64,000 nt of DNA from Candidatus Woesearchaeota archaeon (GCA_046704725.1 JBJKRI010000007.1:24291-88290); one strand, 5' to 3'; counted from the stretch's first letter, positions 5,510-33,031 are shown. Program-made: numbers and translations. The notes: generated by a model from the sequence alone, not told the origin.

Positions 5510-5621
5510 GCTCCTGTAGTCTAGCCTGGATATGATCGGGGCCTCCGGAGGCGCTGCAGAGCGCATCCACCAGCGGCGCTGGAGAGAGCCTTGGGCCGGG
5601 GTTCGAATCCCCGCGGGAGCA
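5510..5621 (+). tRNA. tRNA-Arg(CCG) with 38-nt intron (5549-5586) at position 37/38
   Basis: Acceptor GCTCCTG/CGGGAGC+A; anticodon arm GGGGC-CTCCGG|A-GCCTT; T arm CGGGG-TTCGAAT-CCCCG; full bulge-helix-bulge; CTTATAAG at 5478-5485. Confidence 0.92.
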
Positions 5622-5663
5622 TGCAGCATGCGACCAGTGGAGCCAACAACACGGTTGTTGGGT

Positions 5664-5675
5664 CCCGCGGGAGCA
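5664..5675 (+). repeat. 12-bp direct repeat of tRNA-Arg 3' end (att-like scar)
   Basis: CCCGCGGGAGCA at 5610-5621 and 5664-5675; preceded by hairpin CCAACAAC-ACG-GTTGTTGG (5643-5661). Confidence 0.75.
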
Positions 5676-5728
5676 GTCATCGTGCGACGGTCCACAGCGT
5701 TTATGAACGCTCGCGCCATATCGCCTCC

Positions 5729-5890
5729 ATGGCGAAATCCAAGGATAATACGGCGTGGGCCTTCACCGGTGCGTTTGTCTTGCTCGGCATGGGGTTCGGT
5801 TTCTTGTTCGGCCAACTCGTGGCGGGCATCTTCATCGGCGTCGGTCTCGGCATCCTCATTTCCGTCATCGCCCAGCTTCGGCGCGGCTAG
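5729..5890 (+). CDS. small two-TM membrane protein
   Basis: MAKSKDNTAWAFTGAFVLLGMGFGFLFGQLVAGIFIGVGLGILISVIAQLRRG; TTTATGAA ~25 bp upstream. Confidence 0.75.
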   Translation: MAKSKDNTAWAFTGAFVLLGMGFGFLFGQLVAGIFIGVGLGILISVIAQLRRG

Positions 5891-6252
5891 TCCCCGAAGA
5901 GCAGGTACAGGACGGCCGCGAACATGACCAGCCCGTAGATGCAGTTCGGCAGGCCGAGCAGCCAGCCAAACACGCTCTGCGACAGCTCGATCGCCCCGAA
6001 AACCAACGAGAAGAGCAGTCCCGCCAATGCGAAGGCCCGCGCCGCGCCGCGCGCCGCTTGCCACCGCCGCATCGCCAGGGCCGAGAGGAAGGTGCCTGTG
6101 AAGAGGAGAAAGCCGTACAGGCACGTCGGATACCCGAGCCATTGGATGCAACCGCCAGTGCACTTCCCCGCGAGGAGCGTGCTCAGGTACAGCCCACCAC
6201 TGAACAAGAGGCCCACTGCAGACAGCACGAGTGCCCAGTCGCTTTTTCGCAT
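5887..6252 (-). CDS. VKOR-like small membrane protein with internal Cys repeat
   Basis: Four TM segments; CTGGC loop; LGYPTCLYG and LGLPNCIYG repeats. Confidence 0.6.
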   Translation of the reverse strand: MRKSDWALVLSAVGLLFSGGLYLSTLLAGKCTGGCIQWLGYPTCLYGFLLFTGTFLSALAMRRWQAARGAARAFALAGLLFSLVFGAIELSQSVFGWLLGLPNCIYGLVMFAAVLYLLFGD

Positions 6253-6382
6253 GCCCGCCCCACCGCAAATCGTCTTTTAAAGGCACGGTACGGCGCAGTG
6301 TAGCGGCTTTTTCGTCCCTACCGAAAAGCTTTATAAGGGATGTCCACGCTTTCAGGCCGCAGCGACGCGTTGCGCAGGAAAA

Positions 6383-7645
6383 GTGGTGATCAAGGACCTT
6401 CTCAATAAAGTCAGCAAGCCTCAAGAGCCCACTCCTGAGGTCAAGGCCTTGCGCGACAAGCTCGCCAAGCTCCAGCAGCGCGGCGCAGCGCCGAAAAAGG
6501 AGCAGCCCAGACCACAACCCACCAAACCCGTCCAGCAGCCGGAGGACGAGGTATCCAAGCTCACCAAGGCCTCCGAGGAGGAGCAACGCCGTTTCGCGCA
6601 GGCACGGGACCCCGCGCTCAAGCTCAAGGAGGAGCGCACCCACAAGCTCGTGGCAAAGCAGGTCGCCGAGATGATCGAGCTGTCCACCGAGCTCAACAAG
6701 CGCCTCGCCAAGCTCGAGCAGGAGAAGCAGGCCTCCGAGCACAAGCTCGAGGAGATCGAGAAGCGCAACGAGGAGATGCAGGAGAAGATGGATGTCATCG
6801 ACCAGCGTCTCGAGAAGTTCATGGGGTTGTATGAGGTGGTCACCAACCAGTACAATCCCTTCGCCGACGTTAAGAAGGGCGACAAGCCGCCAGGCACGGT
6901 TCCCGAAGGTGGCAAGCCTGCGAACGTACAGGTCTCCGACAATCTCACGGGAAAGCGCGAGGCGGTTCCTATCAAGCAGGGCGAGATGAGCAGCGAGAAC
7001 GCCAAGAAGATCGAGCGGCTCTTGGCCGAGCTTGAGCACGACGAGCAGGAGAAGCGCGATCTCGGCGAGGACGCCGCGGCGAACATCGAGGGGCGCGAGC
7101 GCAAGACCCAGCAGGACGTCGTGGCCCAGATGCACCTGCTCCTCGGCGACTTCGAGGGTCGCCTCAAACAGTATCTGGACGATTCGGTCCAGAAGAAGCT
7201 CCATTCGGCCTTCTCCGAGCTCGAGACGGTGCTCAACAAGGAGATCGGCGAGGCCGTCAAGGAGGAGGTCACCAAGCTCAAGGGCACCGACGATATCATC
7301 GCCGGCGCTCTGCAGGAGATGGAGCAGCTCTCCAAGCAGGCCAACACCCCTGACGAGTATCAGAAGGAGGAGAAGCAGGTCGAGCAGCAGGTCCGCCACC
7401 TCGACGATTCCATCAAGGCCATCCCGCCGTCATTGTATTTCCGTCTAAACGACGGTTCTATCCTCAAGAGTCGCGAGGACCTCGTCAAGGCCCTCCAGAG
7501 CATGGACGACGCCGTTTTCCGCCATCATGTCTCGGGCGAGCGCAACGATTTCGCCGATTGGCTCGAGCTCGCCCTCAATGACACCTCGGGCAAGGACCTG
7601 CGCGGCAAGTCCAAAGACGAGATGGTGAAGGCGCTCCAACAGTAG
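6383..7645 (+). CDS. archaellum accessory ArlC/D/E-like coiled-coil protein fused to a C-terminal DUF5752-like domain
   Basis: LYEVVTNQYNPF motif after a coiled coil (FlaC-type); C-terminal FRLNDG.ILKS..DL...L..MDD.VF.HHV...RNDFADW; directly upstream of arlG-J. Confidence 0.75.
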   Translation: MVIKDLLNKVSKPQEPTPEVKALRDKLAKLQQRGAAPKKEQPRPQPTKPVQQPEDEVSKLTKASEEEQRRFAQARDPALKLKEERTHKLVAKQVAEMIELSTELNKRLAKLEQEKQASEHKLEEIEKRNEEMQEKMDVIDQRLEKFMGLYEVVTNQYNPFADVKKGDKPPGTVPEGGKPANVQVSDNLTGKREAVPIKQGEMSSENAKKIERLLAELEHDEQEKRDLGEDAAANIEGRERKTQQDVVAQMHLLLGDFEGRLKQYLDDSVQKKLHSAFSELETVLNKEIGEAVKEEVTKLKGTDDIIAGALQEMEQLSKQANTPDEYQKEEKQVEQQVRHLDDSIKAIPPSLYFRLNDGSILKSREDLVKALQSMDDAVFRHHVSGERNDFADWLELALNDTSGKDLRGKSKDEMVKALQQ

Positions 7646-7675
7646 CTTTTCGCTTCTCCCGAAAAAACAGAAATC

Positions 7676-7733
7676 TTTATAAATCGTTGCAGTACTTAAA
7701 TGGTCACTACCTTAGTATACGTTTCAGTATACG
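7676..7733 (+). promoter_or_regulatory. putative promoter of the arlG-J operon with tandem palindromic sites
   Basis: TTTATAAA at 7676-7683; AGTATACG direct repeat at 7714-7721 and 7726-7733. Confidence 0.45.
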
Positions 7734-7748
7734 GGGATAGGAGCGAAA

Positions 7749-8228
7749 ATGGTGTTGCAGGGACGCAGAGGAGCGGAGAATGTCATCGCCTCACTCATAC
7801 TCTTCATCGCAGTCATGGCGCTCGCCACCACCACCACGATCGTCTTCAAGAACTACCTCGACAAGAGCGCCAACGCGGTCAACACCCAGCAGACCAAGAG
7901 CGTGGACGTCATGCAGACGAGCTTCACCATCGACAGCGCGGCATACAACGGAGTCAACACCACGCGCATCTACGTGAAGAACACCGGCAGCACCCAGTTC
8001 GACCCCGGCAACATCGACGTCTACCTCAACGGCGTGCGCATCCCAAGGAGCAACGCCAACCGCACCATCAACGTCACACCCGATACAGACACCATCAACA
8101 CAGGCATCTGGGATCCGGGCGAGGAGCTCGAGATCGACATCAACCACAGCTTCACGAGCAGCTCCACGCAAACGATACTCGTCGCCGCCCCGAACGGCGT
8201 GACCGCGACGGGGGAGTTCAGTAGCTGA
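7749..8228 (+). CDS. flaG: archaellum protein ArlG (FlaG)
   Basis: N-terminal VIASLILFIAV helix, IYVKNTGS, WDPGEELEI; position in cluster. Confidence 0.82.
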   Translation: MVLQGRRGAENVIASLILFIAVMALATTTTIVFKNYLDKSANAVNTQQTKSVDVMQTSFTIDSAAYNGVNTTRIYVKNTGSTQFDPGNIDVYLNGVRIPRSNANRTINVTPDTDTINTGIWDPGEELEIDINHSFTSSSTQTILVAAPNGVTATGEFSS

Positions 8229-9082
8229 TGGGATTCGGCACGGTCTTCGCCACGCTCACCTTCCTCCTGATATTCGCGGGCATGGTCGTCGTGGTCACTG
8301 GCGTCCAGAAAGGCCTTGCCAACAGCGCAGTCCAGATGAACAAGGCACAGGCCATGGCCATCGTCGCGCAGCAAGAGGGCATCAGCATCCTCAGCTCGTC
8401 CTACGGCTACGGCGCGCTCAGCTACTGGCGCGTCACCTACGCCGACGGGTTCAACCTGGGCACTTTCAACAACACAACGGTCGTCGCCGACCAGGTCCAG
8501 CTCACTGCGAACGGCACGGGCACCTACACGAGCGAGGCCTACGACACGGGATTCACGAGCAACTACACCACCCTCTCATGGAGCGCGTTGCAGCCCGGCA
8601 CCAGCACAGTCACCTTCCAGGTGCGCAGCGCGAACAGCACCACCGCGCTCAACGCGACCCCATTCACCGGACCAGACGGTACCACGGCGACGAACTACAG
8701 CGTCTCGGGAAGCACGCTCAACGCCACGCTCAGCCAGAACCGTTACGTGCAGTACCGCGCGACCTTCACGAGCGCCGCCGGCTCGGACCCCATCTTGTAC
8801 GACGTCACGCTCGGCGTCAAGCGCGAGGCAGGGGACGTGAACCTCACCATCAAGAACACCGGACAGTCCATCCTCCACTTCGAGGACACCGACACATACG
8901 TGGACGGCGTGCGGGTGTTGCGCGACGACGCGCACCGCGTATTGCAAGAGCAGATCATCACCAACCCGCGTTTGTGGGACCCCGGCGAGGAGCTCAACGT
9001 GACGATCTTCACGACGATCAGCGCTCCGACGACAGTCATGGCCGTCAACGACTACGCCAAGGACCAGGTGATCGTCACATGA
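8228..9082 (+). CDS. flaF: archaellum protein ArlF (FlaF) with inserted domain
   Basis: MGFGTVFA N-terminus, LTIKNTG, YVDG, WDPGEELNVTI; longer than typical ArlF. Confidence 0.75.
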   Translation: MGFGTVFATLTFLLIFAGMVVVVTGVQKGLANSAVQMNKAQAMAIVAQQEGISILSSSYGYGALSYWRVTYADGFNLGTFNNTTVVADQVQLTANGTGTYTSEAYDTGFTSNYTTLSWSALQPGTSTVTFQVRSANSTTALNATPFTGPDGTTATNYSVSGSTLNATLSQNRYVQYRATFTSAAGSDPILYDVTLGVKREAGDVNLTIKNTGQSILHFEDTDTYVDGVRVLRDDAHRVLQEQIITNPRLWDPGEELNVTIFTTISAPTTVMAVNDYAKDQVIVT

Positions 9083-9783
9083 CCGAAAGCAAGCTCCTCA
9101 GCGTGAAGATCCGTCGCGACGAGCTCAACCGCACCCTCGGCGGCGGCCTGCCGGTCTCGAGCCTCATATTGCTCGAGGGCAGCGACGGCACGGGAAAGAG
9201 CCTGCTCGCCCAGCGCATGGCCTACGGCCTCGTTAAGAACGACGAGTCGGTCTCGTACCTCTCCACCGAGCTCAGCACGCAGGGCTTCGTCGAGCAGATG
9301 GCGAGCCTCGACTACGACATCAAGTACGACATGCTCGACGAGAAGCTGTTCTTCATCAGCCTGTTCCCCTACTACGGTGCCGGAAAGCTCCAGAAGAACT
9401 TCCTGGACATCCTCTTGTCGAGCAAGAAGCTGTTCTCGAGCGATATCATCGTCTTCGACACGCTCAGCTTCCTGCTCGTGGACGAGTCCCTCTCCTCGGA
9501 GGACGCGTTCGCGTTCCTCCAGTTCATCAAGCGCCTCAACGGCCTGGGAAAGACCATCATCTTGTGCGTGGACCCCGACCACCTCAACGCGCGGCTGCTC
9601 ACTCTTATCCGGTCGAGCTGCGACGTCATCTTCGACCTGGAATTGCGCACTTTCGCGGGGCAGATGGTGCGCGTCATCAACGTCAAGCGGTTCAAGCGTT
9701 CGGGAGGGGAAGTGCTCAGCGCCATCCCGTTCCGCGTCGAGCCGGGCAAGGGACTCATCATCGAGATCGTGACATTCAGCTAG
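9079..9783 (+). CDS. flaH: archaellum KaiC-like ATP-binding protein ArlH (FlaH)
   Basis: DELNRTLGGGLP, Walker A GSDGTGKS, FRVEPGKG; ATG overlaps the flaF stop. Confidence 0.95.
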   Translation: MTESKLLSVKIRRDELNRTLGGGLPVSSLILLEGSDGTGKSLLAQRMAYGLVKNDESVSYLSTELSTQGFVEQMASLDYDIKYDMLDEKLFFISLFPYYGAGKLQKNFLDILLSSKKLFSSDIIVFDTLSFLLVDESLSSEDAFAFLQFIKRLNGLGKTIILCVDPDHLNARLLTLIRSSCDVIFDLELRTFAGQMVRVINVKRFKRSGGEVLSAIPFRVEPGKGLIIEIVTFS

Positions 9784-9784
9784 G

Positions 9785-11431
9785 ATGGTAAAGAGAAGAC
9801 ACGCTTCGGAGAAGACGGAGGACATGGGGCAGGCCATGGCCAAGTATCCCCACCTCGCGCGCTATGTCGACCGTATCAGCGCCGACCTCGGAGAGCCTGA
9901 TTGGCGCGTCGAGCTCGACCGCTCCATGCGCAACGAGGAGAATCCGAATATCATCTATCCCGTTGGGGACCCGATATTCATCCATATCTACCGCGACCAC
10001 GAGAAGGGCGAGACCATGTACCACGTCATCGAGCCGCGTCTCTCCGACAAGGAGGAGAAGCTCTATGACCAGGTCATGGACAAGATGATCGAGCACGCCC
10101 ACAAGTACCCCGTCCCGAACAAGATCGAGGACGCCGGCGAGATCATCAAGAAGATCTACGACGAGGTCGTCAAGGTAAAGGACACGGAGGCCAACGTCCT
10201 CGAGCGCACGGTCGAGAGCAAGATCCATCTCACGCAGCAAGAGTATGACGAGCTGTGGTACTACATCTATCGCAACCGTGTCGGCTACGGCAAGCTCGAA
10301 CCCCTCTTCTACGACCCCTATCTAGAGGATATACACTGCACGGGCGTCGGCAACATCAAGACCATCCACAAGATCTTCGAGATGGTCTACACGAATATCG
10401 AGTTCCGCGACGACATCGAGCTCAATAAGTACATCCTCGACGCGTCCGAGCGTGTCGAGCGCCCCGTCAGCGACGCGAACAGCGTGGTGGACGCGATCAT
10501 GCCCGACGGTTCGCGTGTCAACTTCATCTACGGCCGGGAACTGTCGCTCGAAGGATCGAGCTTCACCGTGCGTAAGTTCAGCGAAGTCCCCGTAAGCATC
10601 GTGCAGATCTGCCAGTGGGGCACGATGAGCCCGGAGATCGCCGCCTACCTCTGGCTGTGCCTCGAGAACGGCATGAACATCTTCGTTTGCGGCGAGACCG
10701 CTTCGGGAAAGACCACAACGCTCAATGCCGCGAGCGTCTTCATCAAGCCCGACGCGAAAGTGTATTCGGTGGAGAACACCCCGGAAGTCACCATGCCTCA
10801 CCCCACCTGGCAGCACCTGGTCACCAGGGAGGCGGGAAAGGACACGGATGTCACCATGTTCGACCTCTTGATAGCCGCGTTGCGTAGCCGTCCCAACTAT
10901 ATCGTCGTGGGAGAGATCCGCGGCGAGGAGGGAAACGTCGCTTTCCAGGCCATGCAGACGGGCCACCCCGTCATCAGCACCTTCCACGCCGGTTCGCCGC
11001 ACAGCATGATCCAGCGCTTGACGGGTCATCCGATCAACGTTCCCATCGCCTCCATCGACAACCTGAACATCGTGCTCATCCAGCAGGCGGTCAGCCTGAA
11101 CGGGCGCATGGTGCGTCGCGTATTGTCCGTGACGGAGATCGAGCGCTACTATGATGTCGAGAACAAGGTCATCACACGGGAGGTCTTCAGCTGGGACGCG
11201 GTCAATGATGTGCACCGCTTCCGCGGCCTGTACAATTCCTACATCCTCGAGAAGAAGATCGCGAGCATGCTCGGTTACGCCGACACCCGCGAGATCTACG
11301 CGGAGCTCAACCGCCGCAAGAAGATCATCGAGCACCTCGTCGAGCAGAACATCGACAACTACTTCGACGTCTGGGACGTCATCTCACGATTCACCAAGGA
11401 GGGCGAGGCGGCGTTGCCGTTCGTGATCTAG
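9785..11431 (+). CDS. flaI: archaellum motor ATPase ArlI (FlaI)
   Basis: NPNIIYPVGDPIFIHI, GETASGKTT, LRSRPNYIVVGEIRG, AMQTGH. Confidence 0.96.
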   Translation: MVKRRHASEKTEDMGQAMAKYPHLARYVDRISADLGEPDWRVELDRSMRNEENPNIIYPVGDPIFIHIYRDHEKGETMYHVIEPRLSDKEEKLYDQVMDKMIEHAHKYPVPNKIEDAGEIIKKIYDEVVKVKDTEANVLERTVESKIHLTQQEYDELWYYIYRNRVGYGKLEPLFYDPYLEDIHCTGVGNIKTIHKIFEMVYTNIEFRDDIELNKYILDASERVERPVSDANSVVDAIMPDGSRVNFIYGRELSLEGSSFTVRKFSEVPVSIVQICQWGTMSPEIAAYLWLCLENGMNIFVCGETASGKTTTLNAASVFIKPDAKVYSVENTPEVTMPHPTWQHLVTREAGKDTDVTMFDLLIAALRSRPNYIVVGEIRGEEGNVAFQAMQTGHPVISTFHAGSPHSMIQRLTGHPINVPIASIDNLNIVLIQQAVSLNGRMVRRVLSVTEIERYYDVENKVITREVFSWDAVNDVHRFRGLYNSYILEKKIASMLGYADTREIYAELNRRKKIIEHLVEQNIDNYFDVWDVISRFTKEGEAALPFVI

Positions 11432-11432
11432 G

Positions 11433-13100
11433 ATGCGCGAGTGGATATACGCCATGGGCTTCGAGGACCTGCAGGAGTTCTTCATGAAATTCGGCCTGCC
11501 CATCATGGGGGGCACCATCGTCTCGTATTTCGTCCTCATGCTGTTCTCCGTTCCCTGGTGGCTGCCGTACGTCTTCCTCCTCGCCGGTTCGGGGTTCATC
11601 TTCGTGTACCCGTACATGCAGTTCGAGAAGAAGAAGGTGAACATCCACGAGAACATCCATTTGTTCATCACCTACGCCGGCACGATTAGCACGCTCGACG
11701 TGAACCGCTCGCAACTCTTCGAGCATGTCTCCAAGCAGCAGCAGTACGGATACATCACCGAGGTCACCCAGAAGATCCTGTATCTCGCGCGCGAATGGAA
11801 CCTCGGCTTCGCCCAGACCTGCAGGAAGATGGCGAAGTTCTCCCCCTCGCGCATCTTCTCGGACTTCCTCGACCGGTTGGCCGCCGTCCTCGACTTCGGA
11901 GAGGACCTCCAGACGTTCCTCACCGAGGAGCAGGAAGCCGTGCTCGCGGACTACGGCACCGAGTACAAGCAATCCCTGGAGAACATCAAGACATTGCAGG
12001 ACGTGTTCATCAGCATCACCGTCGCCATGGCCTTCGCGCTCGCAGCGGCGTTGATGCTGCCGCTCCTCATGGGCGTGAGCATGATGCTCGTCGTGCAGTA
12101 CGCCCTGCTCTCGCTCGTGTTCGTGGACGCGTTGCTCATCATGCTCATCAAGCTCTTCATCCCACAGGACCGCCTGCCCCATCGGCTCAAGATCAAGGAC
12201 CAGGGCTCCCTGCGCATCCGCAAGTGGCTGTACTTCATGGTCCCCGCCGCAGTCGCGGTCTTCGGCGTCCTGACGGTCGTCGGCGTCTTCGACTTCCTCA
12301 TCAACGCGACGATCTCGAGCTTCCCCCTCTTCGTGGTCGGCGTCATCGCCATCCAGGAGGAGAACGAGATATTCAGGCGCGACAAGGCGTACCCCGCTTT
12401 CGTGCGCGCAATCGGCGGCACGATCTACGTGCGCGGCGGCGGCGTGACCAGCGCTCTCGGAGCCTTGCAGGTCCACGACTTCGGCCCCTTGCAGCCCATG
12501 ATCACGAACCTTTATCGCCGCTTGCGCCTCGGCACGGACAAGGCGAAGAGCTGGCTGCACTTCTCGGGAGAGACGGGCAGCAACCTCATCTACTACTTCA
12601 CAGAGATCTTCCGCGAATCCATCTATCTCGGCGGCCACGGCGAAAAGATCGGCAAGATGATCAGCGACAACTTCTCCCGCCTCCTCGCGTTGCGCAAATT
12701 GCGCTTGCAGTTGGCGAGCGGTATGCGGGGCGCATTGTACGGCGGCCTCGTCGGTTTCGTCGCGACCGTCTACATGGCTACCGCCATCACGGACATGCTC
12801 TCCAAGCTCTTCGGCGGCGCCATCGGCACGGGCGACGCGGCGTCTAGCGCTTCGCAGTTGTTCGCGCAGATATTGCCGAAGATCCCTCCCATCAACATGC
12901 AGCTCGTCGCATTGTACATCGGCATCATGGTGCTCATCCACGCTATCAGCAGTTCGTATATCATCAAGCTTATCGACGGCGGCAAGTGGACGGCCATGTT
13001 CTTCGACCTGTCCGGAATGCTCGTCATCGGCTCGGTATTGTCTTGGGTGATCCCCAAGCTCTCGCAGTGGGCGTTCGGCAACATCGTGCTCGGCGGCTAA
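11433..13100 (+). CDS. flaJ: archaellum membrane platform ArlJ (FlaJ)
   Basis: 555-aa polytopic protein with two T2SSF-like domains (FSDFLDRLA; LYRRLRLG) after flaI. Confidence 0.93.
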   Translation: MREWIYAMGFEDLQEFFMKFGLPIMGGTIVSYFVLMLFSVPWWLPYVFLLAGSGFIFVYPYMQFEKKKVNIHENIHLFITYAGTISTLDVNRSQLFEHVSKQQQYGYITEVTQKILYLAREWNLGFAQTCRKMAKFSPSRIFSDFLDRLAAVLDFGEDLQTFLTEEQEAVLADYGTEYKQSLENIKTLQDVFISITVAMAFALAAALMLPLLMGVSMMLVVQYALLSLVFVDALLIMLIKLFIPQDRLPHRLKIKDQGSLRIRKWLYFMVPAAVAVFGVLTVVGVFDFLINATISSFPLFVVGVIAIQEENEIFRRDKAYPAFVRAIGGTIYVRGGGVTSALGALQVHDFGPLQPMITNLYRRLRLGTDKAKSWLHFSGETGSNLIYYFTEIFRESIYLGGHGEKIGKMISDNFSRLLALRKLRLQLASGMRGALYGGLVGFVATVYMATAITDMLSKLFGGAIGTGDAASSASQLFAQILPKIPPINMQLVALYIGIMVLIHAISSSYIIKLIDGGKWTAMFFDLSGMLVIGSVLSWVIPKLSQWAFGNIVLGG

Positions 13101-14386: not shown

Positions 14387-14422
14387 GCGTGCGGAAACCG
14401 AGCAATCACAGGTATATATTCC

Positions 14423-23265: not shown

Positions 23266-23667
23266 TCAGAAATGCGGGATGACAAGACGTGAATACTTGT
23301 CATGCGCTTTCTTGAACACAGCCAACTGTCCTGTGTCCCTGGCAGCGAGATACAGACCTTGTTGCTGACAATACCCAACGAAATACCCATTCTCGCTCCC
23401 GAGGATCATTTTCTTAGCGAATCTCGAATCCAACCGTCCAGCATGCTTCTCAATATGACTGCGCGCACGGCGATAGTGGTATGCAGTAGTGCGTCCAAAA
23501 TGGGTTCCTCCCAACATCCCGCCACCATATATGATGAGACCTTCTGCCACGCCCAAAGACAGATGGTGATAATCAAATGCGGCGGCGACGGCTCCAAGCG
23601 CACTTGCAGTGAAGCGATTGCCAATGGTGCTTGCAAGGATTCCGTCAAGTGCTCGTCGCCATTCCAT
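23266..23667 (-). CDS. hypothetical membrane protein (lower-GC ORFan)
   Basis: 133-aa ORF with two hydrophobic segments in a visibly AT-richer patch. Confidence 0.55.
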   Translation of the reverse strand: MEWRRALDGILASTIGNRFTASALGAVAAAFDYHHLSLGVAEGLIIYGGGMLGGTHFGRTTAYHYRRARSHIEKHAGRLDSRFAKKMILGSENGYFVGYCQQQGLYLAARDTGQLAVFKKAHDKYSRLVIPHF

Positions 23668-23725
23668 GCGAAGAGAAATATGCAGGAATTAATAAAGTAA
23701 TCACTCAATGATGGTGATTAGTTTT

Positions 23726-24610: not shown

Positions 24611-24653
24611 CTGTCTTGTATCCACGAAGGGAAAAAAGGAAAATCGGAAGGCT

Positions 24654-24962
24654 TTATCCGAAGAGCGCGCCAAGGCCTGCTGCGGCCTCTTCCTCGTTCT
24701 TCTCTTCCTTCTTCGGCTCCTCTGCCTTCTGCTCCTGTGCAGGAGCTGCGGCAGCGGGCGCGGCGGCAGTCGCGATGGCCGGTGCGGCCGCGGCCTTGCT
24801 GACCGCGTCCTCGATGTCCACGCCGTCAAGCGCCGCTACAAGGGCCTTGATGCGTGAATCGTCCGGTTTCGCTCCCGCAGCCTCGAGGACCTTCTTCACG
24901 GTTGCCTCGTCGATCTTCCCTCCAGCCTTGTGGATGGTCAGTGCTGCGTAGATGTATTCCAT
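24654..24962 (-). CDS. rpl12: 50S ribosomal protein L12/P1 (archaeal)
   Basis: MEYIYAAL...[13 protein letters not shown]. Confidence 0.97.
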
Positions 24963-24974
24963 TGGTGTTCCTCC

Positions 24975-25967: not shown

Positions 25968-26611
25968 CAGAACACCGCCGGCTTGCCCATCGTCAGCTTG
26001 ACAAGCCCGTTCTTGATATTGTTCTCCTCCAATGGGAGGTTGTGGACGACCTGGTTGTAGAGGTAGCTGATGTTGTCGGCGACCTCGTCCTCGCTCTGGT
26101 CCTGGCGTCCGACCTTGAGGTGGATGACCGGGTCCTTCTTGGCCTGGACCCTGATGGTGCGCTGCAATCGCTGGTAGATGGGCGCGAGCGTGGCCTTGGG
26201 TGGCACGACACAGCCTGCCTTGGGGTTGGGCATCTTGCCGCGCGGTCCGAGCACGCGTCCAAAAGTCGTCGCCACCTGCGGCATGACATTCGCCTGCGCG
26301 ATGAAGTAGTCGTATTCTTTCGCGAGGTGCTTGATGTCTTTTTTGCTGAGCTTCGCAAAGTCGTCGGCCACGATGGCTCTGTCGAGCACCTTCTTGGCTT
26401 CCTCGAGCAGTTCGGGGCCGACCAGTCCGCAGACCTTGACTTTCTTGCCGTAGTCGTTGTGCAGCGTGACGTACACGTCGAGCTGCTGTTCGGTCTTCTT
26501 CAGGTCGATATCCTTGAGATTAATGACCAGGTCGACGGATTGCACGAACTTGCGGTCGTTGCCGTTCTCCTTGGCCTGTTTCAGAAGCGCGAGCGCCTTG
26601 TCTTTTTCCAT
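25967..26611 (-). CDS. rpl1: 50S ribosomal protein L1
   Basis: RKFVQSVDLVINLKDID, GRVLGPRGKMP, KLTMG. Confidence 0.97.
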   Translation of the reverse strand: MEKDKALALLKQAKENGNDRKFVQSVDLVINLKDIDLKKTEQQLDVYVTLHNDYGKKVKVCGLVGPELLEEAKKVLDRAIVADDFAKLSKKDIKHLAKEYDYFIAQANVMPQVATTFGRVLGPRGKMPNPKAGCVVPPKATLAPIYQRLQRTIRVQAKKDPVIHLKVGRQDQSEDEVADNISYLYNQVVHNLPLEENNIKNGLVKLTMGKPAVF

Positions 26612-26679
26612 GGTCGTCCCTCCTGCCGAAGCAGTACGATTGGGTCGTGAGTACCGCGAATCGAGGTGCGTTTATAAGG

Positions 26680-27345
26680 CTATGGGTGCCCGGGATGCAG
26701 CTCGTTGCCCGGCCGCAGGGGATCCGCGATAATCGAGTCCCTGCTCAGGCACACGTGCGGCAAGGGGTCTGTCTGGCAGCCGAGGCTGATGGTGGGGAAG
26801 CTGTAGAAGGTCGGTCCGATCCGCATGAGGAAGACGTTCTCCGGGAGGTCCGGCCGTTCCTGGCCGATATAGACCGTGTCCTCGATGGTCCGGTATTCGA
26901 CGCGCGGCTTTCGCGCCAGCTCCGAACGCAGGAAGGCATTCTCGGCCTTGTACGCAGCGCTCGCGTCCGACGCGTGCTCCAGCGCGTCCCGGAGGTTGCT
27001 CGCGTCCTTGTCTTTCAGATACACCGTGCGTGTCCGCACTTGCGGTACGACCACCCTTTCTGGCTTGAGCGTCAGCGCATAGATACCTGCGAACAAAGCC
27101 GCCCCGGCCGCCACGCTGATTGCCGTGCCGTCCGGTAGGTTGGCGGCACGATTAGTGAGCAGTCCGTATCCGTAGAATCCGACCCAACCCCCGGCCGCCC
27201 CGAGCAGTACCGCGTTACCTGCTCTCTGCAGCCGGGTCTCTGTCGGGTGTGGTTGAGAGTCGTAATCCGTGCTCGCGCTCGCACAGCCGGTGAGGGTGGC
27301 GCCCAAGAGCGCCACGCCCACGGCTCGCCGTATCAGGGGGTGCAT
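26680..27345 (-). CDS. hypothetical lipoprotein-like membrane protein (ORFan)
   Basis: LTGC lipobox-like N-terminus, two further TM segments. Confidence 0.55.
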   Translation of the reverse strand: MHPLIRRAVGVALLGATLTGCASASTDYDSQPHPTETRLQRAGNAVLLGAAGGWVGFYGYGLLTNRAANLPDGTAISVAAGAALFAGIYALTLKPERVVVPQVRTRTVYLKDKDASNLRDALEHASDASAAYKAENAFLRSELARKPRVEYRTIEDTVYIGQERPDLPENVFLMRIGPTFYSFPTISLGCQTDPLPHVCLSRDSIIADPLRPGNELHPGHP

Positions 27346-27398
27346 ATCGCTTCAAGGCGACGCGTTTTTATGTGGCTTTGCGCCGACAAGTCGCAGAG

Positions 27399-28247
27399 AT
27401 GACAGAACGACCCGGAAAGCTTACGAGGTTCCGTGATGCAATCCTCTCGCGCGAGCGCGCCGACCTGCCCTGGAGACGGACGACAGAGCCGTACGCCATC
27501 CTCGTCTCGGAGATGATGCTGCAGCAGACCCAGGTCGATCGCGTCGTGCCGAAGTACCTGTCGTTCCTCGATCGCTTCCCGACCGCCGCTTCCTTGGCGC
27601 AAGCGCCCTTCCCTGAGGTCTTGCGGCTCTGGCAGGGCCTCGGCTATAATCGCCGAGCGCGCTACCTGCAGGATGCGGCGCAGTTCCTCGTTGAGCATCC
27701 GCGCCCCTCGTACGAGGAGTTACTCGCGCTCAGAGGCGTCGGGCCGTACGTGGCCGCCGCGGTGTGCGTCTTTGCCTACAACGAGCGGCGGGCGGCGCTC
27801 GACGTGAATGTGCGCCGCATCTTCTCACGCTATTTCGGAGCGGTCGATGACGGTTTCATCGCACAAGCCGTTCCCGAGGATAGCAGGGATTGGCACAACG
27901 CGCTCATGGACTTCGGACAGGCGGTGTGCACCAAGCGCTCTCCCTCGTGCGATTCCTGCCCGCTACGAGCGTCGTGCCATGCGGTCAGGAACGACACGTT
28001 CTCTTCCGAGCCGTCGCATGCCCAGCCGCGTTTCGAGGGCTCCGTGCGTTGGCATCGCGGCCGCATCCTCAAGGTGTTGCTGCGCGGGAGGATGAGGGAG
28101 AATCTGTTGTGGAACGCGCTTCCGAGCGCTTACCGGAACCGCGAGCGGTTCAGCACCGCATTGGACGGTTTGCGCAGGGAAGGTTTCATCGACGATGAAA
28201 AGGGCGTGCTCGCCTTGTCGGATGGGAAGAGCCATCGTCTTGAGTGA
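27399..28247 (+). CDS. mutY: A/G-specific adenine glycosylase (short form)
   Basis: LPWR, ILVSEMMLQQTQV, WQGLGYNRRA, HhH LRGVGPY, ALMDFG..VC...PSC..CPL...C. Confidence 0.93.
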   Translation: MTERPGKLTRFRDAILSRERADLPWRRTTEPYAILVSEMMLQQTQVDRVVPKYLSFLDRFPTAASLAQAPFPEVLRLWQGLGYNRRARYLQDAAQFLVEHPRPSYEELLALRGVGPYVAAAVCVFAYNERRAALDVNVRRIFSRYFGAVDDGFIAQAVPEDSRDWHNALMDFGQAVCTKRSPSCDSCPLRASCHAVRNDTFSSEPSHAQPRFEGSVRWHRGRILKVLLRGRMRENLLWNALPSAYRNRERFSTALDGLRREGFIDDEKGVLALSDGKSHRLE

Positions 28248-28257
28248 GCGCTGGTAA

Positions 28258-29118
28258 TCAGACTCTGCGCAATTCGAGGTACGCGGTCTGCATGTAGCGC
28301 TCGCCTGGAGCGAGAGCGACGAACTTTGCTGGATAGACATCGTTCGCGTCTTTCACCATTCCTCCGGTGAACATCTCCAAACAGACCTGGTTTCCGTTTC
28401 TCCAGACGGCCGATGACGGGAACCGATGCTCCACCCGGACCGACTTCATCCCTCTTCGGTACATCATGCGTCCCGCGCCGACCCATGTCTTGTCGTCTCC
28501 CAACTCGTCGAACGCATGCCACCGATCACCGTACAGTAGCTCTTCTTTGTCTTCTCCCATCCTTGTGAAGCTCGGGTCCCAGCCGTGCTGGAATCGTTGC
28601 GTGCGCGCGTCCAGGTTCTCGACTGTGAGGTCCACTTTCACGATGCCGTCCTGCAGGAGTTCTATCGTCTTGCGCAGGATCGTCTTGTGCGGCCATCGCA
28701 GCGGATAAGGTGATTTCTCGCCCACGACTTCGATGCTCGGGTCGTACAGGTATTCAACGGCGGCCTTGGCCGTTCCAGCGTATATCTGGTGGGGCTTCAG
28801 CCACCGCGCTATACCGTGTTGGGTGAGATGATACGGGACCTTCCCCCGCAGTGGTTCGCGGCCGGTCCGCTTCTGATATTCAGCCACGAGCGCGGCTCGA
28901 TCAGAGCTCCCGTCGTCATCCAACCAGAGCGTGTCGTCCGCTGCCGGACCGACGATCGGCCACATTATGATCTCGGAGTTGCTCCAACCGTTGGGCGGGA
29001 CGCCCTTCCTGCCGCCCGGATGCATGAACTCCGTCCCGTCGAGCGCGAGGCTGATGATCTGGCCGGTTCCCCTGCGGATCTCCGCGCTGAGCGGGCCGTT
29101 GACGGTGCAGATGGTCAT
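28258..29118 (-). CDS. aldose 1-epimerase/galactose mutarotase-like protein (divergent)
   Basis: MWPIVG, QHGIARW, LTVEN, HGWDPSF, VCLE. Confidence 0.7.
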   Translation of the reverse strand: MTICTVNGPLSAEIRRGTGQIISLALDGTEFMHPGGRKGVPPNGWSNSEIIMWPIVGPAADDTLWLDDDGSSDRAALVAEYQKRTGREPLRGKVPYHLTQHGIARWLKPHQIYAGTAKAAVEYLYDPSIEVVGEKSPYPLRWPHKTILRKTIELLQDGIVKVDLTVENLDARTQRFQHGWDPSFTRMGEDKEELLYGDRWHAFDELGDDKTWVGAGRMMYRRGMKSVRVEHRFPSSAVWRNGNQVCLEMFTGGMVKDANDVYPAKFVALAPGERYMQTAYLELRRV

Positions 29119-29151
29119 TGCGTTGGGAACATAATAGAGCTACTTAATACT

Positions 29152-29496
29152 TCAGCTGAAGTAGAGCGGGTCGTCCGAGCGCACGACCGTCTCCGTGCGT
29201 CCGTCCACATTGCGCTTCTCGGCGTACTTGTCGTGCTTGCTCTTGGACTCGTCCTTGACCTCGTTCACGCTGAGTATCTTGTTCATGTTGACGGGCCCGC
29301 AGTTCGGGCACACGAAGAACACGCCCCACTTGCCCTCTTTTTGCTCGACGTACTCGCCGCACACGCATTTCATCTCGCCCATGGAGGCGTTCTTGTGCTT
29401 GGCGCAGACCGGCACCCCCTGCTTGTTCTTGCTGTACGCCGCGGCCCCGCAGAACGGGCATGCCGCGGTCCGGTACGATCCGTACGTCTTGCGCAT
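29152..29496 (-). CDS. zinc-ribbon protein
   Basis: CPFC, C..H, CVCG, GKWG.FFVCPNCG. Confidence 0.8.
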   Translation of the reverse strand: MRKTYGSYRTAACPFCGAAAYSKNKQGVPVCAKHKNASMGEMKCVCGEYVEQKEGKWGVFFVCPNCGPVNMNKILSVNEVKDESKSKHDKYAEKRNVDGRTETVVRSDDPLYFS

Positions 29497-29626
29497 GCCT
29501 CAAGGTCTTTGTGGCGCTTTTTAGGGATTACGCTCGTGCGATACTTATACCAGAAAGCACACCAGGAACATAATCCACTCAAAAGGAGTGAAAACCATTA
29601 AATACTGGTGTGGATGCATGCCGCAT

Positions 29627-30268
29627 ATGAAACTCCTTTATCGATCGGTCACAGCTCAAGACGCGAACAGCGAAGATCCCCAGGAGATAACCTTCGGGAT
29701 CGGAGAAGCGAATCTCGAAGGACTCAATGCGATCGTCAAGCAGGCCAAAGATATCATCGTGGGGCACAGCGATGATCCTGATGAAGCGACCAATATCGTG
29801 CAGGGAGTCAGACCCCCAGGGGGCTACATCACTGTTGATCAAATCGTCGAGAGGACGGTGACAGAGGGTGATCGGACGCTGCGGGTCCTCGCCAACGGCA
29901 CTGATCCGTGGCAGGCTTTCGGCGTTGTGCTCGACACGCGCTACGCCACGCGGGGTATCCCGGACTCCGAGCGTAGCGCAGGATCGGTCGTCATCAACTA
30001 CGCGACCGCCGCGCGTATGGCCAATGGAAACCTGGTCAGTCTAGATTGGATCCGTAGTGCGTCGCACCTCTTGAACGGGCTGACTGGCGGTATCATACAA
30101 GTCAGAGGACCATTCACAGTGGGTAGCGAGATCTATGATGCATTGCGCGTGAGCACCAGAACCGATGCGGTTCTCGACGTGACTCTCCAAGAGAACCTGA
30201 AACGCATACGAGAGCCGTGGGCCATGGATTCTTCAGTCATGCATACGGCACGTCCTGGTCGGTCTTGA
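29627..30268 (+). CDS. hypothetical protein (ORFan)
   Basis: ~213-aa ORF; ATTAAATA at 29597-29604; converges on the permease gene. Confidence 0.55.
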   Translation: MKLLYRSVTAQDANSEDPQEITFGIGEANLEGLNAIVKQAKDIIVGHSDDPDEATNIVQGVRPPGGYITVDQIVERTVTEGDRTLRVLANGTDPWQAFGVVLDTRYATRGIPDSERSAGSVVINYATAARMANGNLVSLDWIRSASHLLNGLTGGIIQVRGPFTVGSEIYDALRVSTRTDAVLDVTLQENLKRIREPWAMDSSVMHTARPGRS

Positions 30269-32132
30269 CACCGTACACGAGCAGGTAGTTCCAGAATAAG
30301 CCCTTCACTTTCTCTATGCGCACCGAGAATCCTGCGCGCTTGAACTCCCTTCGCAACAGCTTGAGGTCCGTCAGCCAGATGGGGTTCGGCAAGAGCCCGA
30401 AGTAGTCCACCCATTCCATGAAGCAGATCTTCCCTCCTTCGGGCATGACGCGCGCGATCTCCTTGAGGACCTTCTGCTTGTCCTGGATGTAGCCGAGCAT
30501 GCCCGTGCTGAACACGACGTCGACTTTCTGCACGTCTGGGTGCAATCGGTTGGTGATGTGTTCGTCGCGGATGCCGATGACGTGCGTGTGCTTGCGTTTC
30601 TCGATGCGTTTCAAGAGCAGGTCGACGTTGCGCGCCCCGCTCTCCACGGCATACACCTTCCCTTTCTTGGTCACGCGCTCGGCGAGGTGGAGCGTGAGGC
30701 TTCCCACGCCGGCGCCGAACTCGAGCACCGTCTTCCCCGTGAGGTCTCCGAACAGGTTGAGCATCTTCTCTCGCACGCCCTTGGGCAGGATGACGTTCTC
30801 CAGGAACAATGCGGGGTACGCCAATGCGTCCATGAAGAATAGCTGCGTCGAAGGATTGTAGTAGATGGAGAGCAGCAGGTAGATTGGGATGCCGAACAGT
30901 ATGAGTGATGCGATGAACTTGAGCGTGCCGAAGGCCGTCGGCGTCAGCACGATCCATCCCACGAGTGCTGCGATGAATATCCCGCTGCTGATGTAGGGCC
31001 CGAAGCTCCCCAACGGCGCGTTGAAGGCCCGTCTTCCGGGTCGCGTGCGCCGCAATAACGGGACGGATAACACAGTGGGGATGTACATGCACAGCGCGAG
31101 TGGCACCATGATGCTCAAGAGCAGTGTGTAGTTGCCGAACGCCGCGAGCAAGACGAGTGCGGAGACGATCCCTTGGAAGAGGATGGCTTTTGCTGGCGTT
31201 CCCGTGCGCGGGCTCCTGTCAGCGAGTTGCTCGATGAAGAGCTTGTCGCGCGCCATGGCCAAGAGCAGACGCGGTCCAGACACGATGTTGCCCGCCGCCG
31301 ATCCGATGAGCGCCAAGAAGATCCCGATCTTGAGGATGAGCGCTCCTGTCGCGCCGAAGATGATGGCGAACGCGTCCGTCAACGGCGCGGGGCTCTTCGC
31401 GAGTGTCGCCGCGGGGATGATGCCGTACAATACGGCGGTCAGTCCGATGCCGAGGATGGCCCCGATGATCGTGCTGATGACGATCGCTCTCGGGATGTTC
31501 TTCTGCGGCTCTTTCGTCTCTTCCGCCAAAAAGCACGCGGCTTCCCAGCCGAAGTAGGTCTCGAGGATGAAGAACAGCGCCACGAGCAGCATGATGGGCT
31601 TTCCGATGACGAAGGGCTGGTAGTTCGCGGGGTTGATGTGGAAGACGCCTCCTACGATCGTGAGGATGACGAAGACGAGCAGGCTCGCCGCGAAGAAGTC
31701 CAGGATGGCTTCCGAAGCCCCGAGTCCCCTATAGGCGATGAAGTGGAGGATGACCACGAGCACGAGGCTGGCGGCCAGCTTCTGCACGAATGGCAGGAAG
31801 GGAAAGGCGTACTCCAAGGCGCCGACGATGAGGATGCTCGTGTTGATGGTGGCGACCAGCCACATGATCCATCCGATGAGGAAGCTCGGGAATCGCCCGT
31901 AGGCGTTCTTGGCGAACTCGTAGATGCCGCCCGCGCGCGGGAACATGCTCGCGAGCTCCGCGAACAAGAAGCCGACGTAGATGCTCTGCAGCCCGAGCAC
32001 GATCCACGCGATGATGGCGGCGACGCCCGCGTAGGACGCGCTGATGGCCGGCCCGAAGAACAGTCCGGTCCCGATGAGCGCGACGAGCGTCAGGCTGGTG
32101 ACGCCGAACAAGCCCATCTTGCGCTCTGCCAT
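30237..32132 (-). CDS. APC-family amino acid permease fused to class I SAM-dependent methyltransferase domain
   Basis: IGTGLF, FAELASMFPRAGGIYEFA, GWEAA...AEETKEP; C-terminal GKTVLEFGAGVG...VYAVE...VLKEIARVMPEGG. Confidence 0.9.
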   Translation of the reverse strand: MAERKMGLFGVTSLTLVALIGTGLFFGPAISASYAGVAAIIAWIVLGLQSIYVGFLFAELASMFPRAGGIYEFAKNAYGRFPSFLIGWIMWLVATINTSILIVGALEYAFPFLPFVQKLAASLVLVVILHFIAYRGLGASEAILDFFAASLLVFVILTIVGGVFHINPANYQPFVIGKPIMLLVALFFILETYFGWEAACFLAEETKEPQKNIPRAIVISTIIGAILGIGLTAVLYGIIPAATLAKSPAPLTDAFAIIFGATGALILKIGIFLALIGSAAGNIVSGPRLLLAMARDKLFIEQLADRSPRTGTPAKAILFQGIVSALVLLAAFGNYTLLLSIMVPLALCMYIPTVLSVPLLRRTRPGRRAFNAPLGSFGPYISSGIFIAALVGWIVLTPTAFGTLKFIASLILFGIPIYLLLSIYYNPSTQLFFMDALAYPALFLENVILPKGVREKMLNLFGDLTGKTVLEFGAGVGSLTLHLAERVTKKGKVYAVESGARNVDLLLKRIEKRKHTHVIGIRDEHITNRLHPDVQKVDVVFSTGMLGYIQDKQKVLKEIARVMPEGGKICFMEWVDYFGLLPNPIWLTDLKLLRREFKRAGFSVRIEKVKGLFWNYLLVYGVKTDQDVPYA

Positions 32133-32194
32133 GCTTTTCTTGCCGGGAATTTCCGCTTATAAATGGCGCGTGTGCACTCGGAAGGCGTGGCGGC

Positions 32195-32212
32195 ACGCCG
32201 CGGCTCGGATTC
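32195..32212 (-). repeat. 18-bp direct repeat of tRNA-Ser 3' end
   Basis: ACGCCGCGGCTCGGATTC at 32195-32212 and 32279-32296. Confidence 0.9.
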
Positions 32213-32279
32213 CTCAGAGCGCAGCGATGAGGCGCAAGAAGCGGAGCTTCGCCAGCGCGTCCGAAAACGAGCAAGGCAA

Positions 32280-32362
32280 CGCCGCGGCTCGGATTCGAAC
32301 CGAGAATGGGTTTCCCCTCCGGCTCTCAAGGCCGGTGCACTACCAGGTTATGCGACCGCGGC
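32280..32362 (-). tRNA. tRNA-Ser(TGA)
   Basis: GCCGCGG acceptor, CCGGC-CTTGAGA-GCCGG anticodon arm, long variable arm, CTCGG-TTCGAAT-CCGAG, G discriminator; CTTATAAG 25 bp upstream. Confidence 0.95.
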
Positions 32363-32399
32363 AACAAGTACAGGGCGGCGCGGCCGCTTATAAGATTGC

Positions 32400-33031
32400 T
32401 GGGCCCGCCCGGACGTGCGCTCCGGCGGGGACCCACTCGACGGCGCACCAAGCAGTGGAAATGCATAAATACCATTGAACCCTCTTCATAGTGATGACAG
32501 GAAGTTTCGCATATCCGGTCGTGAATCATGCAGTGGAAGACATCGGCGAGCTGTTCGAATTCCGCGCGGAAGACGCTTCTGCGTTCGCCGCTGAAGTGAA
32601 CAAGGCGTTCAGCGAAAGGAGCTTCCGGCTTCTCACGCCCGGAAGAACGGTTGCCGATGCCTACTGCTGGTCTTGCACCCTTGTTGAGGTGACGGTCGAC
32701 CACGACGGCGTGGACATTGTGATAGAGAAGGAGATATCCATGCGTGGAACGCTACCTGTCCGTACTGCCATGAAACCCCGTTTCGCTTTCGACCCGCAAC
32801 ACGGTCTGTACCTATTGACAGGAGAGCCTAGCAGGCCATACGTCAATCGACAGGAACACTTCTTGTGGTACAACAACCAGCCGCTCAAGCCCCCTCAAGA
32901 GAGACTCCAGGCAGGCGAACTCCAACACTCGTAGCGTTTCTCGAAACCAGACCTTTGCGGCAGAGACTGTTCCGAATCCGTATCGGAGTGCGAACCGAAA
33001 AACCTCTCCGGATGGATGGGCCCGCCCGGAC
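32400..33031 (-). mobile_element. tRNA-Val-anchored mini-island bounded by 15-bp direct repeats
   Basis: TGGGCCCGCCCGGAC at 32400-32414 and 33017-33031 (tRNA-Val 3' end); encloses one ORF; no integrase. Confidence 0.75.
32494..32934 (+). CDS. hypothetical protein (cargo of the mini-island)
   Basis: 146-aa ORF with CATAAATA ~25 bp upstream. Confidence 0.6.
   Translation: MTGSFAYPVVNHAVEDIGELFEFRAEDASAFAAEVNKAFSERSFRLLTPGRTVADAYCWSCTLVEVTVDHDGVDIVIEKEISMRGTLPVRTAMKPRFAFDPQHGLYLLTGEPSRPYVNRQEHFLWYNNQPLKPPQERLQAGELQHS

Follow-up and report, generated by a model that had tools for sequence, protein, structure and literature searches.

Exact copies of tRNA gene ends lying beside the genes themselves are routinely read as scars of dead prophages or islands, and the question raised by the locus treated here, a stretch of 64,000 nucleotides (nt) from a Candidatus Woesearchaeota archaeon (contig C7:24291-88290; hereafter "the window", along the whole of which coordinates are counted unless another contig is named), is what such copies stand for when they mostly bracket tiny, structured and gene-less units. 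Three of the five tRNA genes of the window are followed by a copy of their own 3' end, which an initial annotation had ascribed either to three collapsed islands or to an integron-like mechanism capturing short cassettes behind tRNA genes under the guidance of hairpins. With confidence and doubt evenly balanced, the duplicated ends are read here as attachment (att)-type repeats of tRNA-targeting integrative elements, which would have been reduced to integrase-less miniatures that persist and spread. Integration is favoured because of the geometry of the repeats, an integrase-encoding island in the same genome, the presence of its integrase family beside tRNA genes, 5'-end units with promoters, and the orientation of a shared end motif.

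Duplicated tRNA ends in the window

The genome containing the window (labelled G000) amounts to 1.18 Mb in 8 contigs, the GC content of which is 60-62%. Introns in tRNA genes and TATA boxes ahead of genes mark it as archaeal. The tRNA genes of the window were called with ARAGORN and Rfam (Ser, Val, Thr, Leu), tRNA-Arg being recovered via the intron option of ARAGORN. The exact copies of the Arg, Ser and Val 3' ends (12, 18 and 15 nt, at offsets of 54, 84 and 617 nt) were found just where the initial annotation had put them (Table 1), tRNA-Thr and tRNA-Leu having none. Each copy ends at the discriminator base; in keeping with the claimed start near the T-loop, those of Ser and Val begin within this loop and that of Arg in the 3' strand of the T-stem. 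A TATA-like box follows shortly after each of them, as had likewise been stated. Equally sound was the claim that the window holds no integrase: it encodes no tyrosine recombinase, because all four PF00589 matches of G000 lie on other contigs.

The GC content of the Val insert is 55.7%, compared with the 60-62% of the G000 contigs, the Arg and Ser units being too short for their composition to be judged. Its orphan open reading frame (ORF) had no match in Pfam, NCBIfam or PHROG, no paralog in G000 and no relative in viral contigs. At this same place, ARAGORN reported a permuted "tmRNA*" (32435-33108, - strand) covering tRNA-Val, the 602-nt insert and the outer copy, for which Rfam gave no tmRNA; the duplicated tRNA end has most likely given rise to a spurious call, archaea not being known to possess tmRNA.

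Table 1. Positions of the tRNA genes, terminal repeats, inserts and adjoining features within the window (aa, amino acids).
Feature	Position	Strand	Basis or remark
tRNA-Arg(CCG), 38-nt intron	5510-5621 (C7 29800-29911)	+	ARAGORN with introns
Inner repeat, last 12 nt of tRNA-Arg	5610-5621	+	
Insert after tRNA-Arg, 42 nt	5622-5663	+	no gene
Perfect hairpin in Arg insert, CCAACAAC-acg-GTTGTTGG	5643-5661	+	
Outer exact copy of tRNA-Arg 3' end, 12 nt	5664-5675	+	at +43; tRNA positions 101-112 of 112
TATA-like box 3' of Arg copy	5700-5707		read from sequence
53-aa ORF 3' of Arg copy	5729-5890		no Pfam match
Permease-methyltransferase gene	30237-32132	-	Pfam; amino-acid permease (AA_permease_2) fused to S-adenosylmethionine (SAM) methyltransferase domain
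TATA-like box 3' of Ser copy	32156-32163		read from sequence; serving the permease-methyltransferase gene
Outer exact copy of tRNA-Ser 3' end, 18 nt	32195-32212	-	at +67
Ser-insert hairpin, core TCAGAGC..GCGATGA	32212-32232		+ strand reading; adjoining the outer copy
Insert after tRNA-Ser, 66 nt	32213-32278	-	no gene
Inner repeat, last 18 nt of tRNA-Ser	32279-32296	-	
tRNA-Ser(TGA)	32279-32363	-	ARAGORN, Rfam
TATA-like box directly after Val copy	32387-32394		read from sequence; serving tRNA-Ser
Outer exact copy of tRNA-Val 3' end, 15 nt	32400-32414	-	at +603
Insert after tRNA-Val, 602 nt	32415-33016	-	
Orphan ORF in Val insert, 147 aa	32491-32934		strand opposite to tRNA-Val
Inner repeat, last 15 nt of tRNA-Val	33017-33031	-	
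tRNA-Val(TAC)	33017-33089	-	ARAGORN, Rfam
tRNA-Thr(GGT)	39268-39342	-	no terminal copy (internal control)
tRNA-Leu(TAA)	41016-41099	-	no terminal copy (internal control)

Terminal copies in the rest of the genome and in relatives

The suggestion made along with the initial annotation, that such copies be looked for at every tRNA gene of this genome and its relatives, was followed. When the 46 tRNAs of G000 were each compared with the 5 kb on either side of them (three ARAGORN calls with "introns" of more than 100 nt being dropped), four had a downstream exact match of at least 12 nt that ends at the last base of the tRNA, namely tRNA-Phe (16 nt, +67) in addition to Arg, Ser and Val. A mirrored case is provided by tRNA-Gly(TCC) (C6:201289-201450), the first 12 nt of which are copied twice upstream, at -39 and -91, with its TATA box preceding the outermost copy, so that its transcript must start with a structured leader of 91 nt; G003 and G004 have degenerate forms of this 5' copy. 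An internal 12-mer 2.1 kb from tRNA-Thr(CGT) was taken as chance, and the candidate of a larger island at tRNA-Met was dropped, the 12-mer in question lying 25 kb away within coding sequence and looking like chance as well.

The relatives comprised four genomes of the same genus (G001-G004), G006 from a sister genus and G089 from another family within the order, from which 1 kb on each side of the Rfam-found tRNAs was taken. Among the 238 tRNAs of the seven genomes (G000 included), 27 had a copy of their 3' 15-mer (up to three mismatches) within 300 nt downstream, against none for the 15-mer searched upstream and one for the reversed 15-mer searched downstream; kinship among the genomes inflates such counts, the contrast with the controls nevertheless being large. 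The downstream copies are not due to chance. For the 5' 15-mer searched upstream of the same tRNAs, the count was six versus one and one in the controls.

The proportion of tRNA genes affected ranges from none to about a third per genome. G002 has no terminal copies, and G001 only has one at tRNA-Lys (21-nt copy, 715-nt insert). Copies in G003 are found at Gly, Ser, Thr and Cys (two units), as well as at the 5' end of Glu, and those in G004 at Gly (three units with 49-51-nt spacing), Thr-tgt, Thr-ggt (two units), Val and Cys, along with decayed ones at Ser and Phe. G006 carries them at Arg-tct (two units, the copies being 49 nt apart), Trp, Gln and Ala, and G089 at Gly, Met, Cys and Arg-cct, with 5' copies at Val and Ser that each have a TATA box of their own.

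The repeats vary between 10 and 21 nt in length, and their outer edge is always at the tRNA end, with the 3' copies starting in the T-loop or T-stem and ending at the last base of the tRNA or up to 4 nt (once 8 nt) beyond it. The inserts are mostly 34-110 nt long and gene-less, the longer ones measuring 148, about 200, 602 and 715 nt and 18.2 kb, and tandem arrays with a period of about 49-52 nt are present at tRNA-Gly of G004 and G003 and at tRNA-Arg-tct of G006. Units at 5' ends (tRNA-Gly in G000, G003 and G004, tRNA-Glu in G003, and tRNA-Val and tRNA-Ser in G089) have repeats of 12-20 nt (once 50 nt) and inserts of 27-130 nt with no integrase in between. Terminal inverted repeats were, by reading, noticed only in the insert at tRNA-Met of G089.

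An integrase island at tRNA-Glu and the recombinases available

The initial annotation had linked the copies to integration at tRNA 3' ends, a link that holds. Four tyrosine recombinases of G000 are matched by PF00589, these being two XerA-type paralogs, a 167-aa fragment-like protein and a 390-aa integrase. At tRNA-Glu(CTC), an island of 18.2 kb (C5:239791-258063) is found, the integrase gene of which starts about 50 nt after the tRNA, and the last 15 nt of the tRNA are repeated 18.26 kb downstream, where they bound the island. Its DNA (47-55% GC) is clearly foreign, and its genes encode two helicases of the UvrD type, one of which bears a PD-(D/E)XK nuclease domain, along with an Eco57I-type methylase, a PLD-domain (nuclease-type) protein and a DUF5655 protein, so that it looks like a defence-type genomic island. 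As this island has both an integrase and a 15-nt repeat, tRNA 3'-end integration with repeats of about 15 nt therefore occurs in this organism. Proteins homologous to the integrase (about 30% identical) were detected in 15 of 150 other genomes sampled from the order, with a tRNA alongside in 5 of the 11 loci fetched. The flank of the Val outer copy in the window (..GCGCAC|copy) resembles the attR flank of this island (..GCGCACT|copy).

Archaea usually carry one XerA. The two XerA-type paralogs of G000 (C6:180674-181138 and C4:46173-46616) are 38% identical, both score at the cut-off of the XerA model and both fall below the integron-integrase cut-offs; full-length Xer-type matches number two each in G001 and G002 and one each in the fragmented assemblies of G003 and G004. 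The initial annotation had also pointed to a solitary tyrosine recombinase or an HUH transposase as enzymes to be sought in the genome, of which only tyrosine recombinases, the two XerA paralogs included, were found. The HUH Y1 transposase (PF01797) and TnpB (PF07282) gave no match above the cut-off in the five genus genomes (G000-G004), and Cas1 (PF01867), which was detected in control genomes, was found in none of these five. No attC-type boxes, no integron integrase with an attI and no dif-type site were identified, an attC model not having been run.

Filled and empty sites

Orthologous loci turned out to exist in both filled and empty states, a comparison that the initial annotation had considered informative. 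One instance is tRNA-Val, which is filled in G004 and empty in its close relative G003, where the flanks align base for base around an exact gap of 57 nt that equals the 44-nt spacer plus the 13-nt repeat. In G001, tRNA-Val and tRNA-Ser are just 5 nt apart, with no insert. On the 3' side of tRNA-Gly, G003 and G004 have units and G000 and G001 do not, the downstream gene being the same in G000, G001 and G004 (the G003 contig ends inside the array), and at two tRNA-Thr genes with a common 3' end the units are swapped between G003 and G004.

A separate observation on tRNA-Val(TAC) is that the G003 gene (C24, about 1310-1411) contains a 29-nt insertion in the D-arm region, which is missing from the G004 orthologue (5398-5470) and may be a non-canonical intron gained or lost between the sister species; ARAGORN wrongly labels the G003 gene tRNA-Glu.

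The duplications might also stem from mistakes of repair or replication that arise locally (by template switching, slippage or snap-back synthesis) where tRNA genes are highly transcribed, with no mobile element involved. Template switching can yield short direct repeats combined with hairpins, and units 2 and 3 of the tRNA-Gly array in G004 are identical, which points to local amplification. The explanation is, however, highly improbable in our view: the spacers are not templated from anywhere in G000 (templated insertion was rejected on this count, with no donor found), the end motifs recur at different tRNAs and in different genomes, the repeat edge falls at the tRNA end in more than 25 cases, and the genome has an ordinary integrase island whose repeat is of the same kind.

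Hairpins and shared insert ends

Each copy had initially been described as being preceded by a hairpin, which was only partly corroborated. When the window units were folded as DNA against 200 shuffles, the Arg unit (z -3.04, a value reached by 1 of the 200) was the only one to beat them, the folds of the Ser (z -0.14) and Val (z +0.35) units being no better than shuffled sequence, although the Ser hairpin is conserved with compensatory changes. Across the units at large, the hairpins did prove more frequent than in shuffled sequence: 11 of 29 units have a perfect stem of at least 6 bp in the last 35 nt ahead of the copy, against 39 of 630 trailer windows without a copy and 3.3% of shuffled windows, and the mean fold z of 17 units is -2.0. 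Such a stem is, on the other hand, carried by only about four units in ten.

Several inserts at different tRNAs share their ends. The copies at tRNA-Val, tRNA-Gly and tRNA-Phe of G004 are immediately preceded by the Arg stem (CCAACAAC/GTTGTTGG) as well, and the motif ggcaCCAACAACnnnGTTGTTGaga stands directly before the copy at G004 Phe, Val and Gly and at G000 Arg. Shared ends are also seen between Trp and Gln in G006, between Arg-cct and Met in G089, and between the 5' units at Val and Ser in G089. The Ser unit is homologous in G000, G003 and G004 (66, 70 and 71 nt), and an alignment of these with a fourth sequence, the tRNA-Gly leader of G000, gives the TCAGAGC..GCGATGA hairpin an invariant core, with 28 of 28 cells paired and compensatory changes at two of seven pairs, a score that is reached by 2 of 500 shuffles (four sequences). 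This hairpin lies antisense behind tRNA-Ser and sense ahead of tRNA-Gly, adjoining the outer copy in both; the motif therefore belongs to the end of the insert and not to the tRNA transcript.

Such conservation might alternatively mean that the units are functional parts of the tRNA transcripts, i.e., structured trailers or leaders that aid processing, termination or stability, with the copy being under selection. The size of the Ser unit is kept in three species, its likeness between G003 and G004 exceeds (by reading) that of the promoter-side intergenic DNA, the compensatory changes and the copies that track the species-specific tRNA fit as well, the mean fold z is in favour, and the position of the tRNA-Gly promoter, ahead of the outermost 5' copy, means that this unit must be part of the transcript as a leader. 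We nonetheless find an RNA function improbable. The conserved hairpin has opposite orientations relative to the tRNA at Ser and Gly, decayed copies exist at Ser and Phe of G004, G002, which has no units at all, and G001, with only its 715-nt tRNA-Lys insert, manage with no short units, and the T-run with which some units start should stop transcription; besides, no Rfam family apart from tRNAs is found in the window.

More specific versions of this explanation were tried and discarded. For a minihelix, in which the unit start would pair with its own copy in imitation of the acceptor stem, local alignment gave p values of about 0.05 or less in only 3 of 17 units, and an RNA duplex test on 21 units gave -8.6 kcal/mol for own versus -7.7 kcal/mol for swapped copies (p = 0.22), so that it was rejected as a general feature. 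A T-arm intron with a duplicated exon was rejected with in-register bulge-helix-bulge motifs (a simple definition of our own) at 4 of 418 versus 20 of 4180 positions, i.e., not enriched, and no convincing motif of this type in any of the three window units. The GA-rich hairpin as a C/D-box small RNA was likewise set aside, the boxes and spacings being a misfit by eye and only tRNAs passing the Rfam gathering thresholds.

The hairpin CAACAACnnnGTTGTTG was tried as an order-wide marker and abandoned, 5 of 151 genomes having it versus 4 for the reversed control; both G089 matches are beside tRNAs. In G089 (C43, C90), a double-hairpin module of about 43 nt (ATTTGAGCwwwGCTCAAAT plus CAACAACnnnGTTGTTG) is nested in one tRNA-linked insert and missing from the homologous insert at another tRNA, and a further copy, inverted, stands behind tRNA-Leu beside an ORF which on visual inspection resembles an IS5-type transposase; the module has the look of a small mobile palindrome.

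A proposed derivation of the miniature units from integrative elements

We infer that the units originated by integration, whereby mobile DNA would insert into the last 12-21 bp of tRNA genes and leave attL/attR-type direct repeats behind. The incoming element would bring a tRNA-end copy of its own, which after recombination would complete the tRNA and become the inner repeat, and the outer repeat would be the original tRNA end, displaced downstream together with its original flank and the promoter of the next gene. The Val insert, with its single orphan ORF, would then be a remnant of 602 bp, and the inserts behind tRNA-Arg and tRNA-Ser would be gene-less units of 42 bp and 66 bp. In this reading the short units are no random debris; they would form a lineage-wide class of integrase-less derivatives with conserved, often palindromic ends beside the outer repeat. 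They are found at the 3' and, mirrored, at the 5' ends of tRNA genes, are gained or lost precisely, become amplified in tandem, and appear to move between tRNA genes with common ends. Their spread may proceed via tyrosine recombinases acting in trans (island integrases or a XerA paralog) or via recombination between the repeats.

The idea of three collapsed islands is, in comparison, too simple, since units of 34-110 nt are found repeatedly within the genus, within the family and in a second family of the order, at either tRNA end, in tandem, with common motifs and with a precise insertion/deletion difference. The other initial proposal, integron-like capture guided by hairpins, was not demonstrated: no cargo other than one orphan ORF is seen, nor any excised form or attC-type site, the hairpins, though enriched, are restricted to about four units in ten, and tyrosine recombinases are the only ones found.

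Several observations weigh against the derivation from integrative elements. At 34-110 bp, the units lack the length to form a circle and integrate on their own by means of a tyrosine recombinase. Neither the three window inserts nor the rest of the window contain an integrase or any other recombinase gene, and G003 and G004, which are rich in units, yielded only Xer-like recombinases (in assemblies that are fragmented). The clustering of sizes, with like sizes at orthologous loci (66, 70 and 71 nt at Ser), is unlike the random decay of islands. Among species-representative genomes, metagenome contigs and viral contigs, no full-length parent sharing these end motifs came to light: a scan of genome contigs for the end motif of the Ser unit returned only the two known relatives and chance bacterial matches, a hairpin-end scan of metagenomes returned coding sequences only, and the island integrase, like the orphan ORF, has no relatives in viral contigs. 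The spacers of G000 are single-copy in the genome, which thus gives no hint of a multi-copy family having been active recently. Finally, the Ser copies match their own tRNA at three positions at which G000 differs from G003 and G004, with the spacers diverging, and the Cys copies do so at one position that differs between G003 and G004. For copies to track a drifting tRNA next to diverging spacers, recombination, gene conversion or selection would have to be at work continuously (none of the three having been observed directly); decayed copies nonetheless exist at Ser and Phe of G004. Either recombination, both among the repeats and with visiting elements, keeps the units in place, or some other trans-acting mechanism exists.

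The latter would be in line with the units being a mobile class of their own, i.e., hairpin cassettes of 35-110 nt inserted or captured at tRNA ends by a trans-acting enzyme, with the 12-21-nt duplication being made at insertion or with the folded unit serving as the recombination partner (cf. integron attC sites and Xer-dependent elements such as the CTX phage). The same unit end is found beside different cognate repeats at different tRNAs, the filled/empty difference of 57 nt is precise, the arrays have regular periods and the unit sizes cluster, perfect stems are enriched before the copy, units sit at both tRNA ends in mirrored orientation, and there are two XerA paralogs in G000 and two full-length Xer-type matches each in G001 and G002. 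This is still rather unlikely, given that none of Cas1, the HUH Y1 transposase and TnpB was found in G000-G004, that no free, circular or junction form was seen (there being no sequencing run in which to look for one), that a variable repeat length with its outer edge at the tRNA end fits a tRNA-restoring element better than a staggered cut, and that most units have no terminal inverted repeats, about six in ten have no hairpin, and those of G000 are single-copy. A somewhat less doubtful, though still speculative, proposition is that Woesearchaeota carry undescribed gene-less mini-elements of 35-110 nt with hairpin ends, which insert at either end of tRNA genes, duplicating 12-21 nt of the tRNA terminus, pile up into repeat-spacer-repeat arrays and are moved by an enzyme that they do not encode themselves (a second XerA-type protein, visiting integrases).

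Named candidates of this sort did not fit: a casposon, with no Cas1 match in any of the five genus genomes; an element of the IS200/IS605 type of insertion sequence or a miniature derivative thereof, with no PF01797 or PF07282 match in those genomes and with units that have 10-21-nt repeats; and a miniature inverted-repeat transposable element, with repeats of variable length, terminal inverted repeats at tRNA-Met of G089 only, and spacers that are single-copy in G000.

Relation to known systems

According to three reports, archaeal integrases act at the T-loop/3'-end of tRNA genes (the Williams 2002 sublocations, cited in PMC8371274), the pleolipovirus SNJ2 has 14-bp repeats of the 3'-distal tRNA-Met region (PMC5861418), the PYG1 island has 44-bp repeats (PMC9897764), and pTN3-like integrases target the tRNA 5' half, the restored tRNA being expressed from a promoter of the element (PMC8371274); taken together, they describe cores down to 14 bp, related integrases with many tRNA targets and, occasionally, the use of 5' halves (PMC5861418, PMC8371274, PMC9897764). 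The units share with archaeal att repeats the exact tRNA terminal repeat, the intact tRNA on one side and the empty sites in relatives, and the repeat of SNJ2 is close in length to those found here. Unlike archaeal att elements, the bracketed segments are mostly 34-110 nt long, gene-less, often tandem and conserved or exchanged between species, and the three window cases have no integrase inside or near them. With pTN3-like elements they have in common the tRNA 5'-end copies upstream and, in G089, 5' units with TATA boxes of their own, whereas no integrase lies between the repeats and tRNA-Gly of G000 has a 91-nt leader with no inner promoter.

Cis-mobilisable elements (CIMEs), which belong with other integrase-less attL-attR derivatives of integrative elements, are kilobases long, can circularise, originate from full elements and accumulate next to them at a common tRNA. 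Like the units, they are att-bounded, integrase-less and presumed to rely on a recombinase in trans, the units being tens of bases instead of kilobases in size. Casposons make target-site duplications of 14-15 bp, some of them at tRNA 3' ends; the short duplication is similar, as is the repeat-spacer-repeat look of the tandem arrays, but no Cas1 was found in the five genus genomes and the units have no terminal inverted repeats. With integron attC sites and Xer-dependent elements such as the CTX phage, the likeness consists of an integrase-less unit, a palindrome beside the recombination point and tandem accumulation at one site, and the difference is that only one unit has an ORF and that no attC boxes, attI or dif-type site were identified. 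Recombination of folded single strands would, in the present case, be pure conjecture.

No description of miniature units at tRNA ends in DPANN archaea was found in the literature searched (subscription journals lying outside its coverage), and, as far as this search goes, what it leaves undescribed is the miniature state per se: units of tens of bases with structured ends, in tandem arrays, precisely gained and lost, and with repeats identical to a drifting tRNA. If their mobilisation takes place in trans, no smaller site-specific integrative unit would be known to us, and they would offer an entry point to the recognition of tRNA gene ends by recombinases in DPANN archaea. In practical terms, the units displace tRNA and neighbouring promoters, create long tRNA leaders, and can mislead tRNA/tmRNA finders as well as island-prediction tools.

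Other observations

The Ser/Val tRNA pair of the window is flanked, opposite the permease-methyltransferase gene, by a PLD-family (cardiolipin-synthase-like) gene at 33128-34096 (- strand). Elsewhere in G000 (C4:78236-78358), a tRNA-Met intron contains GCGATGAGG and CCGATGACC, which, by eye, resemble the C and C' boxes of a box C/D guide RNA.

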